Part shown: positions 6,160-54,723 of the stretch, piece after piece
How positions within the stretch are numbered: position 1 is the first letter of the stretch
Layout of the letters: each line of letters begins with the position of its first letter
From: a phage
Assembly (NCBI GenBank): GCA_012365435.1
Contig: GCA_012365435.1_4518.1
Reading direction: 5' to 3' (one strand)
DNA length: 64,000 bases
Made by a program: the position numbers and the translations under genes
The notes under the pieces: model-generated
What the model was told of the DNA's origin: nothing
The model's database searches: none
The model's input: the letters and a program-made list of their open reading frames with translations, nothing else

Positions 6160-6213
6160 ATTTTTCCACTTACTAAAGAAATCATTATACTCTAATCCGT
6201 CCTTGGATGTAAA

Positions 6214-50647: not shown

Positions 50648-51073
50648 TTATTTAAATTTAATTTTCTGAAGTGCATCAATTGCAGCCAAACGCCCTTGTT
50701 CACTTTTAACTGTAATGACCACATCACCTGATACGATCACCGAGCCGTCAACAAATTCTATAGAGCCTTTTTTGAAATCGACAGCTGTATCTTGTTCCTG
50801 AACTTCTTCAAAGAATTTAAATTCTGCACCATAAAGCAGAATATCACCTTGCATACTATGAATAGTTCGGCCATAATCGCCTACGGCTTCTACAGCAATA
50901 ACCGAAACACCGTAACCAATCATCTCTTCCACAATAAAATCTTTGGACAATAAAGTAGTATGCAGATTAGTATTAAGACGTTTACCAGTCGTATTAAGAA
51001 TTCTCAAGAAATTATCTTCTTGACCTTTGATAATACGATATTTCTTACCAACTTCAAAACCTTTAAAAGCCAT
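50648..51073 (-). CDS. Hypothetical protein, 141 aa
   Basis: ORF. Confidence 0.5.
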   Translation of the reverse strand: MAFKGFEVGKKYRIIKGQEDNFLRILNTTGKRLNTNLHTTLLSKDFIVEEMIGYGVSVIAVEAVGDYGRTIHSMQGDILLYGAEFKFFEEVQEQDTAVDFKKGSIEFVDGSVIVSGDVVITVKSEQGRLAAIDALQKIKFK

Positions 51074-51257: not shown

Positions 51258-51686
51258 TTATTCCTTAAAATGTGCTTTCAACATTTGATACAAAGACCAT
51301 GCCTGGTCGTTATTTTTGATAGTAATCTTCATCACCGGAAATTCAGACAATTCATCAAGTTCTCCAGAGTCTTGCTCTTCAGACGCTTGATATGGATTTC
51401 CAACTTCGTCAAAGAACTCTGCTTCATTCGTGGAGAGCCAGATAAAGTTTTCATCAAGGATATCACCGCCTGTTGCGTATCCAACCATGCCAGTAGATGT
51501 CACAATTTTAGTAGGACGACCAAGATGGTCAACATCTAATACTTTAAATGGTTCCATGCCAAGACGTCGTGCATAAATCCCATTATCAGTGTGGTCTTTA
51601 ATAAACTCTTCTTGGGCACGTTTATCTTTAAATTGGTACCATGAGTTAACGCGGAATTTATTAGCCATTAGTAAGTTTCCTTCCAA
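51258..51686 (-). CDS. Hypothetical protein, 142 aa
   Basis: ORF. Confidence 0.5.
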
Positions 51687-51952: not shown

Positions 51953-52477
51953 TCATTTTAGCAAAATAAAATCAACTTGTTCTGCCAATGAACGTCTAAA
52001 CATTAATTGACAACTTCCGAGGATGAAATCAGGTGCTTCATAGACCGCGATGTAGTATCCTTTAGCTTTCAAGAGTTCAACATCTACCTGGTCATCAAAC
52101 CATGCATAAACCGCATCAACACTTTCAAATCCAAAATAGAACCCTTGAGCCCAATCTTCACTCAATTCAAATGTGTGCTCAATTCTATAGTATCTTAAGA
52201 TATTTTGTTCAAGGAGTTTGTCTTCATTTACTGTAGGACGATTAGGGACATTATAGTTGTCGCCGTGATGGTAGAAGTTACCTGAGAGTATTCCATGTTT
52301 ATCAAGGAACTCCCATGTTTCTTCAGAGTTGTCGGTGCCCGACCAACCGTACGGCGAGCGAGGTTCTTTATTCCAAGAGGTTTCCCAAATTCTGACGGCT
52401 TTACCGTCTTCGATAGCAATTCCCGGTAATGATTCACGTTGAGTACAAAAACTACGTTCTACGCGGTAAACTAACAT
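51953..52477 (-). CDS. Hypothetical protein, 174 aa
   Basis: ORF. Confidence 0.5.
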   Translation of the reverse strand: MLVYRVERSFCTQRESLPGIAIEDGKAVRIWETSWNKEPRSPYGWSGTDNSEETWEFLDKHGILSGNFYHHGDNYNVPNRPTVNEDKLLEQNILRYYRIEHTFELSEDWAQGFYFGFESVDAVYAWFDDQVDVELLKAKGYYIAVYEAPDFILGSCQLMFRRSLAEQVDFILLK

Positions 52478-52536: not shown

Positions 52537-52956
52537 TTATGCGAAAGCAGCTGGGCTATATTTTTTGATTTGGAATTCAGGAACTACCATGAACTGACCA
52601 GCGAAAACAATGTTATAAAGCTTAACACCATCTTCTACCCAACGGTCGCTAATAAATCCGGCGATTTGCTTAGTTTTCCATGGCGTTCCATCAGTTGCCG
52701 CAGCAATAGTGAATTCATGGTCTTTTTCAACAGAAACTGATCTGCATAGTCCCCATTTGAACGCTTTTTCTTCTGGTTCAATGAATTGACTTTTAACGTA
52801 ACCAATGTTACCATCGGCGTCACGAACTTTAACTTCGTTACGTCCAAAAACTGGATCACTCACAGAAAGAACTTCAACCAACTTCCCGGCAACTTTAGAG
52901 CGAGAAGCAACAGATACATATACGTAATCACCTGTAGAGAGATTTACAATATTCAT
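52537..52956 (-). CDS. Hypothetical protein, 139 aa (member 1 of tandem paralogue trio)
   Basis: Shares C-terminal GFISDRWVEDGVKLYNIVFAGQF.VVP motif with the next two ORFs. Confidence 0.55.
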   Translation of the reverse strand: MNIVNLSTGDYVYVSVASRSKVAGKLVEVLSVSDPVFGRNEVKVRDADGNIGYVKSQFIEPEEKAFKWGLCRSVSVEKDHEFTIAAATDGTPWKTKQIAGFISDRWVEDGVKLYNIVFAGQFMVVPEFQIKKYSPAAFA

Positions 52957-52965
52957 AATAATTCC

Positions 52966-53421
52966 TTAAGCTTTACGAGGAGACACATAGCGAGTGATTT
53001 CAGATTCTTTAACAACTCGGAAGTCACCTAAGAATACGATATTGTATAACTTTTCACCATCTTCAACCCATTGGTCACTAATGAAGCCGCACATAGTATC
53101 AGTTTTGCTTGGATAACCGTATTCATCGATGAAGTCAAATTCTTTATCAGTCTGGAATTCAACACCTTTACACAAGGCCCATTTGAACTGTACATTAGGT
53201 TCAGTAGAAGCAAAATGAGCACTCACATGAGTTTCCAAGAATTTAGGACTTACGTAAGCGTACTGAGTTTCAGTTTTTCCGGAACTAGGAATGATTCGAA
53301 CTTTAACTTCTTTAACACGTCCAGTACCATTAGTACGAAGTCCGACAACTTCAACCAGACGACCTGCAGCTTTAGAACGAGATGCAGATGATACACGCTT
53401 AATTTCACCAATAGTAATCAT
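52966..53421 (-). CDS. Hypothetical protein, 151 aa (member 2 of tandem paralogue trio)
   Basis: GFISDQWVEDGEKLYNIVFLGDFRVV. Confidence 0.55.
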   Translation of the reverse strand: MITIGEIKRVSSASRSKAAGRLVEVVGLRTNGTGRVKEVKVRIIPSSGKTETQYAYVSPKFLETHVSAHFASTEPNVQFKWALCKGVEFQTDKEFDFIDEYGYPSKTDTMCGFISDQWVEDGEKLYNIVFLGDFRVVKESEITRYVSPRKA

Positions 53422-53485
53422 AATTTCTCTCTCTCTTTGTTTAAGTTGAATTCATTATACTCCATCCGTCCTTGGATGTACAACA

Positions 53486-54022
53486 TTAATTAAGGATATT
53501 AACCACAGCACTACGTGGAACTACACTAAAATCACCTGCATGAACAACGTTCAGAAGTTCAACACCGTCTTCAATCCATTGGTCAGTTACCCATCCATTT
53601 ACTGGACCAGCGAATGGGCGTCGAATTGAAACATATTTACACAACAAATCAGTAGGCTCAATAGGCTTAATCAGAGTACCGTACATACAAGTGATATCCA
53701 TATCAATACAGATATCTTTAACGGGTTCTACTTCTTCAATCAACAGTTCAAAGTCGGTGCTTGGAAGGGCGGTAGTAGAAATTGTACCATATGAATTTTT
53801 AATTTCTAAGAATAACCAAGGGCCTTCAACTTGTTTGATGAAGTTAACAATAGTGAAACTATTACCTTGAGTGGCACCTAAAATTTCACAAAACTTTTCA
53901 TAAGCTCGCACTGAAGCACCGTACCAGTTGATTTGTTTTTCATCTTTCAGGATGTAAGTAGCCGTGGTATTGATATTCATAATGTTTTCCCGTTTGGTTA
54001 AGATAGAAAGATTATACTCCAA
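53486..54022 (-). CDS. Hypothetical protein, 178 aa (member 3 of tandem paralogue trio)
   Basis: GWVTDQWIEDGVELLNVVHAGDFSVVP. Confidence 0.55.
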   Translation of the reverse strand: MEYNLSILTKRENIMNINTTATYILKDEKQINWYGASVRAYEKFCEILGATQGNSFTIVNFIKQVEGPWLFLEIKNSYGTISTTALPSTDFELLIEEVEPVKDICIDMDITCMYGTLIKPIEPTDLLCKYVSIRRPFAGPVNGWVTDQWIEDGVELLNVVHAGDFSVVPRSAVVNILN

Positions 54023-54040
54023 CCATCCTTGGTTGTAAAC
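54005..54040 (-). promoter_or_regulatory. Early promoter (PeSL-like)
   Basis: - strand GTTTACA, spacer, TATAAT. Confidence 0.45.
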
Positions 54041-54045
54041 TGTTT

Positions 54046-54723
54046 TTATCGCTGTTTTACACTTAACGGGTCAGGATTCTCAGGGACATCTTCAAGGCCA
54101 AGCGCGTACCGCTGAGCATATTTTAACATCAAAATATCTTTAGCACAATCATGAATACTATCATGGGCAACGAATCCTTTTAGCGTACCCATCGGTAATG
54201 GACACATACTTAATCCTCGTGTCAACGAGTAAGCTTCGATTGCCGTACGAATATCGCGTTGAGCCCAGAATTTAACCGGTTCTAATTTATCGGTATCAAT
54301 ATCTGGTTCAAGAACACCTTCATCACGATAGAGATCACGAATCAAATCGACCAAGATCGGGAAGTCAAAGCTCATACCACGGCACCACATCTGTGATTTC
54401 CATTGGTCAACTTTATTAGCTCGGCAATAATCTAAAAAGATTTTAATGCCTTCAAGCGTAGTGACATCGTCTTCAGACGGGGCCAAGTTTTTACGTGCTT
54501 CTGCTGACTGTTCTTTCCACCATTTCATAGTGGATTTAGCAAAAACTCGCTTCCCTTTCTGAGAAGCTAAATTAAATTTAATTCGCTTACCTCGTTGAAC
54601 AAGTTCTTCAAATGATTCAACAACTTCAGGGTCGGAATTATATGCAATAACCGCAAGGTCAATAACAGCCGCTTTTGATGTATTGCCGAATGTTTCAAAA
54701 TCTATAATAACATCAGTGCTCAT
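54046..54723 (-). CDS. dexA: Exonuclease A (DnaQ-like 3'-5' exonuclease), 225 aa
   Basis: DFETFG exo I motif at N-terminus; length and position as T4 DexA. Confidence 0.88.
   Translation of the reverse strand: MSTDVIIDFETFGNTSKAAVIDLAVIAYNSDPEVVESFEELVQRGKRIKFNLASQKGKRVFAKSTMKWWKEQSAEARKNLAPSEDDVTTLEGIKIFLDYCRANKVDQWKSQMWCRGMSFDFPILVDLIRDLYRDEGVLEPDIDTDKLEPVKFWAQRDIRTAIEAYSLTRGLSMCPLPMGTLKGFVAHDSIHDCAKDILMLKYAQRYALGLEDVPENPDPLSVKQR

Follow-up and report, generated by a model that had tools for sequence, protein, structure and literature searches.

A probable motB.1-motB-motB′ cluster in an RB69-like phage: one predicted C-terminal domain on different N-terminal domains

The T4 phage proteins MotB and MotB.1 have a common conserved C-terminal domain (CTD) and different N-terminal domains (NTDs), and their homologs have been categorized by NTD, with both genes present in 40 other phage genomes (Patterson-West et al. 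2021, PMC7827196). In the same survey, RB69 was found to carry two motB genes, one motB.1 gene, and a 29-aa peptide, and the CTD was assigned in silico, on the basis of HHpred, as an OB-fold DNA-binding domain (PMC7827196). In E. coli, T4 MotB is toxic; it doubles the burst size and binds both unmodified DNA and DNA carrying glucosyl-hydroxymethyl-C, with no sequence specificity detected (PMC6070864, PMC7827196). It copurifies with H-NS and StpA and overrides the H-NS footprint at proV; its overexpression raises 75 host genes, about one-third of them in the H-NS regulon, so that part of the regulon is de-repressed (PMC6070864, PMC7827196). The NTD of T4 MotB.1 has been modeled as LSm-like (Kim et al. 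2025, PMC12152347). Here, we compare with these proteins a cluster of three tandem open reading frames (ORFs), designated ORF164, ORF151, and ORF139 by the number of amino acids encoded, found between positions 52537 and 54022 of a 64,000-nucleotide stretch of phage DNA (GenBank assembly GCA_012365435.1, contig GCA_012365435.1_4518.1; "the window" refers to this whole stretch).

We estimate a probability of roughly 85% that this cluster, flanked by dexA and motB.2/cef within the dispensable early region, is the motB.1-motB-motB′ trio of an RB69-like (Mosigvirus-type) T4 relative. The source region is that of a T4-like phage, with gene 39 (topoisomerase), goF-like genes, cef, dexA, and dda around the cluster, all on the minus strand. 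Over 2.9 kb, the cluster region is 98.5% identical to Escherichia phage TH12 and 97% identical to many RB69-like phages, including Mosigvirus mobillu. The three ORFs, also on the minus strand, lie between dexA (54046 to 54723) and a motB.2 homolog (51953 to 52477). The resulting order (dexA, motB.1, motB, a MotB-like gene, motB.2, cef) is the order annotated in RB69 (RB69p009 to RB69p013, NC_004928), which likewise has two MotB-type genes plus motB.1, and it is also that of mobillu, whereas the T4 order is dexA, motB.2, motB.1, motB, cef. The genes and the segments encoding their shared block are as follows.

53486 to 53980, minus strand: ORF164, predicted ortholog of T4 motB.1 (phrog_2333, E = 2.7e-82, full length; PF17613, 35.3 bits)
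52966 to 53421, minus strand: ORF151, predicted MotB ortholog (PF17613, E = 1.8e-38 over residues 1 to 146; phrog_1671, E = 7.3e-65)
52537 to 52956, minus strand: ORF139, predicted second full-length MotB-type paralog (PF17613, E = 1.7e-21; phrog_1671, E = 1.3e-51)
53489 to 53659, minus strand: CTD coding block in ORF164 (residues 108 to 164: EPTDLLCKYVSIRRPF...GWVTDQWIEDGVELLNVVHAGDFSVVPRSAVVNILN), from invariant columns and AlphaFold 2 (AF2) strands
52969 to 53193, minus strand: CTD coding block in ORF151 (residues 77 to 151), from alignment and a predicted local distance difference test score (pLDDT) of 91 to 95 over residues 81 to 150
52540 to 52764, minus strand: CTD coding block in ORF139 (residues 65 to 139), from BLASTP, tblastn, and alignment

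The similarity among the three proteins is far above chance. ORF139 and ORF151 align over nearly their whole length (BLASTP, E = 4e-32, 43% identity over ~145 columns), and the alignment of ORF164 to either is confined to its last 29 to 36 residues (to ORF139, E = 2e-10, 16/29 identical; to ORF151, E = 3e-10, 16/36 identical). Observed local scores of 97, 100, and 248 compare with a mean of ~28, a standard deviation of ~4.6, and a maximum of 61 among 2,000 shuffles per pair, giving z = 15, 16, and 46. All three proteins also exceed the curated gathering cutoff of the motB family PF17613 ("modifier of transcription"; 25 bits, whole-protein score), ORF139 with 77.2 bits, ORF151 with 132.4, and ORF164 with 35.3, the last through a C-terminal match only (residues 84 to 159 to profile positions 78 to 153). 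Across 36 relatives with different NTDs, 20 CTD columns are invariant, and 16 to 20 are invariant across distant family members. That the likeness is due to chance or composition and the ORFs are not real genes is an idea for which we found nothing in favor; the BLASTP E values of 2e-10 to 4e-32, the z scores of 15 to 46, the Pfam and PHROG matches, and the hundreds of conserved orthologs already refute it. The original prediction, made from the sequence alone, is thus upheld in its central statement that three adjacent ORFs have a common C-terminal block, and lack of statistical significance, the outcome it had named as refuting, was looked for and not found. When the three proteins and their last 50 residues were used as tblastn queries, no further copy of the block was detected in the 64-kb window; the best off-target match, at 676 to 831 (E = 0.046 to 0.49), was taken as chance. 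Plus-strand ORFs overlapping the cluster genes (e.g., 53071 to 53391, 106 aa) had nothing supporting them and were taken as mechanical ORFs.

Several details required correction. The predicted sizes of 139 and 151 aa stand, and the third ORF has 164 aa rather than 178, starting from the ATG at 53980. The C-terminal motif as first written fits ORF139 and ORF151 exactly and ORF164 only loosely (GWVTDQWIEDGVELLNVVHAGDFSVVP). The N-terminal halves had been described as diverged in all three proteins; this applies only to ORF164, whose NTD is unrelated to the others, since ORF139 and ORF151 align from residues 2 to 6 onward.

MotB proper ("Category 1" of Patterson-West 2021; phrog_1671) is defined by similarity that extends over both domains of T4 MotB, the KOW-like NTD and the CTD. 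ORF151 shows this similarity (profile positions 2 to 157 of 162; phrog_1671, E = 7.3e-65), as does ORF139 (phrog_1671, E = 1.3e-51 over residues 5 to 139). ORF151 is 96% identical to RB69 MotB (P0126) and 52% identical to T4 MotB; ORF139 shares 43 to 50% identity with ORF151 and 48% with T4 MotB, and its counterpart in RB69 is RB69p010, the second "MotB-like" gene. The two-domain architecture is that of T4 MotB (NP_049626; PF17613): the N-terminal motif RVSxxSRSKxAGxLVEV is common to ORF139 and ORF151 and appears in the KOW-like NTD of T4 MotB as RVSxxSRSKAAGxLVEV, and the CTDs of ORF139, ORF151, and T4 MotB carry G[FY]I[ST]DQWVEDGxKLYNxVF. The location is likewise the same: downstream of dexA, in a dispensable early region, and with a promoter of the early type. 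Where T4 has one MotB, of 162 aa, there are two copies here, of 151 and 139 aa, both shorter than T4 MotB because their linkers are shorter. On these sequence comparisons, we assign ORF151 as the MotB ortholog and ORF139 as a second, full-length but shortened MotB paralog.

ORF139 is shorter than ORF151 and T4 MotB by ~12 to 25 residues in the NTD and linker, and its NTD (isoelectric point [pI] 6.2) is not basic, unlike that of T4 MotB (pI 9.9). Its loss of NTD and linker residues and of basic NTD charge, its lack of a promoter of its own, and its absence from most T4-like genomes could together mark a redundant, decaying duplicate that is heading for loss without a function of its own. This is very improbable, however, given that an intact 139-aa ORF is present in 208 records at 80 to 100% identity, that the ratio of nonsynonymous to synonymous substitution rates (dN/dS) is 0.17 to 0.21 with dS up to 0.49, that the gene has its own Shine-Dalgarno sequence (AAGGA), and that the ORF139-type CTD is reused in two chimeric proteins (P0155 and P0223). 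We conclude that ORF139 is not decaying.

ORF164 belongs to the MotB.1 subfamily ("Category 2"; phrog_2333), which is defined by a MotB.1-type NTD together with a MotB.1-type CTD (GWVTDQWIEDGVELLNVVHAG): it matches phrog_2333 over residues 1 to 164 (E = 2.7e-82) and aligns over both domains with T4 MotB.1 and with the intact, 143-aa T4-type protein P0011 (77/142 identical). ORF139 and ORF151 match phrog_2333 in the CTD only; conversely, ORF164 matches phrog_1671 at residues 126 to 163 only, placing it outside MotB proper. The 178-aa reading begins at a TTG at 54022 that falls within the −10 region of the promoter of this gene; because of this, and because the orthologs (92 to 97% identity) are all 164 aa long, we place the start at the ATG at 53980. 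T4 motB.1 likewise adjoins motB; ORF164 differs from T4-type MotB.1 in having an additional linker segment of ~20 residues (DICIDMDITCMYGTLIKPIEP). On the sequence criteria above, ORF164 is assigned as the MotB.1 ortholog. As a separate observation, its linker (53659 to 53722, residues ~87 to 107; pLDDT < 50), like that of the relatives P0029 to P0064, holds a conserved short motif, D.D[IV]..MYGTL[IV]KP[IL]E, which repeats ahead of each extra module in those relatives that are longer and have two or three N-terminal modules; it may be a short linear interaction motif.

Structure prediction places the shared block within a distinct domain. In the AF2 model of ORF151 (mean pLDDT 85.1), an NTD of residues 1 to 62, with four strands between 7 and 57, is followed by a disordered linker (66 to 75) and a CTD (~77 to 151) with five strands at 86 to 146 and pLDDT 91 to 95. 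The ORF164 model (mean pLDDT 79.6) comprises a helix-plus-strand NTD (~1 to 85; strands 8 to 11, 42 to 49, 55 to 61, 67 to 73, and 80 to 82; helix 26 to 37), a disordered linker (86 to 108), and a CTD (~108 to 164), again with five strands, within residues 116 to 163. The shared sequence block corresponds to strands 2 to 4 of the C-terminal unit and forms the predicted core of a compact C-terminal beta domain with five strands and ~55 to 75 aa. Through a disordered linker, this domain is attached to a KOW-like NTD in ORF151, where it is strongly basic, and ORF139, where it is near neutral, and to an unrelated, acidic helix-plus-strand NTD in ORF164. The charges of the two domains differ among the proteins.

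ORF151: NTD pI 10.7, CTD pI 4.68
T4 MotB: NTD pI 9.9, CTD pI 7.95
ORF139: NTD pI 6.2, CTD pI 8.1
ORF164: NTD pI 4.57, CTD pI 4.65, whole protein pI 4.5

In both CTD models, strands 4 and 5 are separated by a short helix. This is the pattern of SH3-like folds; in the OB fold, the helix lies between strands 3 and 4. For both AF2 models, the matches in fold searches were confined to SH3-like barrels (Tudor, KOW), and the top matches included no OB fold, although these searches used whole two-domain models, so that the source domain of each match is not separable. The resemblance to SH3-like small beta-barrels (KOW of NusG and Spt5; Tudor, PWWP, and chromo domains; PsaE and NdhS), at 6 to 19% identity, is one of fold only, and a PDB sequence search with ORF151 gave no match at E up to 1. 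By these whole-model searches, neither OB topology nor OB-fold structural neighbors were seen for the MotB CTD. The model in the literature holds that the CTD is an OB-fold domain of the cold-shock or eIF5A-like kind that serves all three proteins as their common DNA- or RNA-binding part. It draws on the HHpred-based assignment (PMC7827196) and accords with an all-beta CTD of five strands and with the tight DNA binding of T4 MotB. The placement of the predicted helix and the CTD pI of 4.65 to 4.68 in ORF164 and ORF151 argue against it, as do the fold searches, not domain resolved, and we regard it as doubtful.

The LSm-like family of GoF and MotB.1 as well as Frd.2 proposed by Kim et al. (2025) is characterized by a bent N-terminal sheet of five antiparallel strands that shows a relationship to GoF and Frd.2. 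Two goF-like paralogs lie a few genes downstream of the cluster (50648 to 51073 and 51258 to 51686, both minus strand; both phrog_622, E = 2.8e-21 and 5.4e-39) and are another paralogous pair among the small early genes within this dispensable region. When the MotB.1 profile was compared by hhalign with these two proteins, the probabilities were 5.8% (50648 to 51073) and 0.2% (51258 to 51668), which gave no support to homology between the ORF164 NTD and the goF-like genes. There is a weak PHROG cross-match between a 141-aa goF-like protein and phrog_2333 (E = 3.8e-4).

The distribution of the family points to how it arose. The three-gene block recurs in 149 phage records. Among 778 phage records with a MotB-like match, an ORF139-type copy is present at at least 80% identity in 208, and the other 570 match only below 60%. 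In other T4-like phages, the CTD occurs in forms of 143 to 145 aa (T4 type), 164 to 169 aa (window type), and ~180 and ~250 aa, the last two with one to three N-terminal modules. Chimeras are also found: P0155 joins an RB69-MotB NTD, and P0223 a T4-MotB NTD, to an ORF139-type CTD, while P0059 and P0083 have KOW-like NTDs on a MotB.1-type CTD. These sequences are consistent with recombination between tandem paralogs. In the Tequatrovirus Shigella phage Sf24, all three genes are 88 to 96% identical to those of the window at the amino acid level, whereas its motB.2 is of the T4 type, 43% identical, and in the T4 position upstream of the trio; the cassette has therefore been exchanged between genera independently of its neighbors. 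What had been proposed, a single gene diverging in three directions in its N-terminal half, is wrong; the sequences indicate that the family grew by duplication and domain shuffling, with one CTD joined to unrelated NTDs.

Tandem diversification of this kind had been read as the mark of an arms race. A rapidly diversifying anti-defense or host-takeover family, with each copy tuned to a different defense or target, might be expected from the variation in copy number and architecture (570 of the 778 records lack an ORF139-type copy at at least 60% identity), from relatives carrying one to three N-terminal modules and the existence of chimeras, and from the movement of the cassette between lineages (88 to 96% in Sf24 versus 43% for motB.2). 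Against three related phages, however, pairwise dN/dS was 0.13 to 0.16 for ORF164, 0.15 to 0.26 for ORF151, and 0.17 to 0.21 for ORF139; as pairwise gene-wide averages, these values could be escaped by a few positively selected sites. They indicate purifying selection on all three genes and no evident arms race. The 16 to 20 invariant CTD columns across distant members, the absence from the literature of any report of anti-defense activity for MotB or MotB.1, and the T4 motB.1 deletion, without phenotype under laboratory conditions, argue in the same direction, and we consider an arms race improbable. What holds of the proposal is a small early family of tandem paralogs that includes a host-takeover protein, T4 MotB; nothing in our analysis points to anti-defense.

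Each gene had also been credited with its own promoter, which is borne out for ORF164 and ORF151 and fails for ORF139.

54011 to 54039, minus strand: T4-early-type sigma-70 promoter upstream of ORF164, TTTACA-17-TATAAT (11/12 consensus match)
53454 to 53482, minus strand: T4-early-type promoter upstream of ORF151, TGTACA-17-TATAAT, a near-copy of that of ORF164 (10/12 consensus match)

A 27-nt pattern common to both promoters occurs twice in the window versus 0 expected. The ORF164 promoter sequence is identical upstream of motB.1 in RB69, mobillu, and ZQ3 and differs by one spacer base in DCP548. ORF139 begins 9 nt past the ORF151 stop. No minus-strand promoter-like site was found at the ORF151/ORF139 junction or upstream of it within ORF151, and ORF139 is probably cotranscribed with ORF151. 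Judged from promoter consensus, two sigma-70 early-type promoters would thus drive motB.1 and the motB-motB′ pair. The trio shares with the T4 MotB class both early-type promoters, by consensus match, and a location between dexA and cef, by synteny with T4 and RB69. The 17-nt spacers hold an inverted repeat of 5 bp whose two arms differ in a paired manner between the promoters, CAACC-AAGGAT-GGTTG at motB.1 and CATCC-AAGGAC-GGATG at motB, with GGAG and TATAAT coming next; in RB69, mobillu, ZQ3, and DCP548 (relatives where readable), both genes retain their respective versions. This repeat may be what the original prediction called "PeSL." A third near-identical copy of the early promoter starts at 6213 on the minus strand.

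By orthology, ORF151 is expected to act like T4 MotB. Extrapolating from the T4 ortholog, ORF151, and perhaps ORF139, would coat DNA nonspecifically soon after infection and alter the placement of H-NS and StpA on it, so that the host nucleoid and transcription would be remodeled in favor of the phage. Its charge suggests that the basic KOW-like NTD (pI 10.7 in ORF151, 9.9 in T4 MotB) would be the main DNA-binding part; this basic NTD is the single feature of the present sequence that supports placing ORF151 in the T4 MotB functional class. From its charge and SH3-like appearance, the conserved CTD would more likely be a shared module for protein contact or oligomerization than a DNA binder. 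ORF164 would couple a different NTD to the same partner, as suggested by its overall acidity (pI 4.5), and ORF139 would be a variant that has lost most of the positive charge of its NTD.

Several points weigh against this account. ORF151 is only 52% identical to T4 MotB, from which its function is extrapolated, and the DNA binding of ORF139 is uncertain because its NTD has lost its basic character (pI 6.2). MotB.1 is without an assigned function, and deletion of T4 motB.1 gave no phenotype. The published OB-fold DNA-binding model of the CTD conflicts with a role in protein contact. The SH3-like matches may stem from the NTDs because whole two-domain models were searched, and an acidic CTD is not universal, those of ORF139 (pI 8.1) and T4 MotB (pI 7.95) being mildly basic. 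Finally, as both alignments contain the hybrids P0059 and P0083, the hhalign values between the two family profiles are inflated.

With low confidence, we extend the protein-contact role of the CTD to a proposal for the whole locus. The CTD barrel may be a common docking or oligomerization module that does not bind nucleic acid and that brings interchangeable N-terminal heads to one partner or into hetero-oligomers. On the same tentative footing, the heads could be a KOW-like DNA binder with basic charge, a KOW-like form that is neutral, and an LSm-like domain, with up to three tandem modules elsewhere in the family. A candidate shared partner, equally speculative, is the H-NS/StpA nucleoprotein, in which case the three genes might form one system.

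Comparison of ORF164 with reference genomes revealed single-nucleotide insertions in motB.1. The T4 reference (NC_000866/AF158101; 7291 to 7400, minus strand; compare window 53486 to 53600) contains an extra G in the gene, ATTGGAAGATGG versus ATTGAAGATGG, in the context ATTGGAAGA versus ATTGAAGA. As a result, annotated T4 MotB.1 ends at GWVTDQWIGRWR*, giving a protein of 119 aa and 13.8 kDa that stops in the middle of the conserved CTD motif, and the next frame continues EDGVELLNVVHAGEYSVVPRSAVVAILN*, the remainder of the conserved domain. The extra G is absent from two independent T4 resequencings that were aligned (MT984581 and KJ477684), and in the remaining near-identical records, of T4, RB55, and RB59, the match spans 600 bases, not 601. 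The intact T4-type protein has 143 aa (P0011, 16.2 kDa) and is found on 256 contigs. In the RB69 reference (NC_004928, 8376 to 8872), two single-T insertions split motB.1 into ORFs of 132 and 29 aa, whereas the gene is intact in the window; neither insertion occurs in the window or in mobillu. The 29-aa "Category 3" peptide (PMC7827196) is therefore the C terminus of split motB.1. Programmed frameshifting was considered for motB.1 and ruled out: the T4 and RB69 insertions are at different positions, and they are absent from the two aligned T4 resequencings and from RB69 relatives. Kim et al. (2025) had motB.1 synthesized commercially, cited NC_000866.4 for T4 sequences, and reported a 13.8-kDa monomer (PMC12152347). 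From the synthesized gene, the accession, and the mass, it follows that their heterologous MotB.1 experiments probably used the truncated form. If the CTD is indeed a docking module, the published negative results with T4 MotB.1 would be uninformative, since the 119-aa form tested was truncated inside that module.

Other features in the neighborhood of the cluster are as follows.

51953 to 52477, minus strand: ORF174, motB.2 homolog (phrog_1106, E = 1.9e-45; 61/155 identical to T4 MotB.2)
52531 to 52504, minus strand: promoter-like site of ORF174
54046 to 54723, minus strand: dexA exonuclease, upstream flank of the cluster (PF16473, E = 4.2e-20; T4 and RB69 annotation)

The annotated counterpart of ORF174 in RB69 is motB.2. 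It was considered as a fourth paralog and ruled out: it has no Pfam motB match, belongs to another PHROG, and shows no tblastn similarity to the cluster proteins. It is thus unrelated to MotB despite its name, and several GenBank records call motB.2 a "transcriptional regulator." Start calls for the MotB ortholog are also inconsistent, with many GenBank records giving 165 to 186 aa by using a start farther upstream, in overlap with motB.1 and the promoter (mobillu, DCP548, and the protein clusters P0122 and P0124 among them), and others giving 151 aa; names at the locus vary across databases as well.

We conclude that the cluster is real and significant, with corrections of detail. Because the shared CTD, the different NTDs, and the copy number of RB69 are all published, the finding is a rediscovery of a described family in its RB69-type arrangement and carries little weight as a discovery. 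The interpretation first attached to it is partly supported, right in pointing to an early host-takeover family and wrong on mechanism, which is domain shuffling rather than N-terminal divergence. New here are (i) the SH3-like matches of the whole models, (ii) the charge differences among the CTDs, and (iii) the 1-nt insertions that truncate motB.1 in the T4 and RB69 references. The last of these matters since the only published functional tests of MotB.1 used the T4-reference gene and so probably a protein without most of the conserved domain. The movement of the cassette between T4-like genera and the recombination between paralogs are useful for annotating and engineering this dispensable region. 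For the family itself, the SH3-like look of the models and the acidity of the CTD in two of the three paralogs argue against the published OB-fold assignment and would shift the question to the protein partner.

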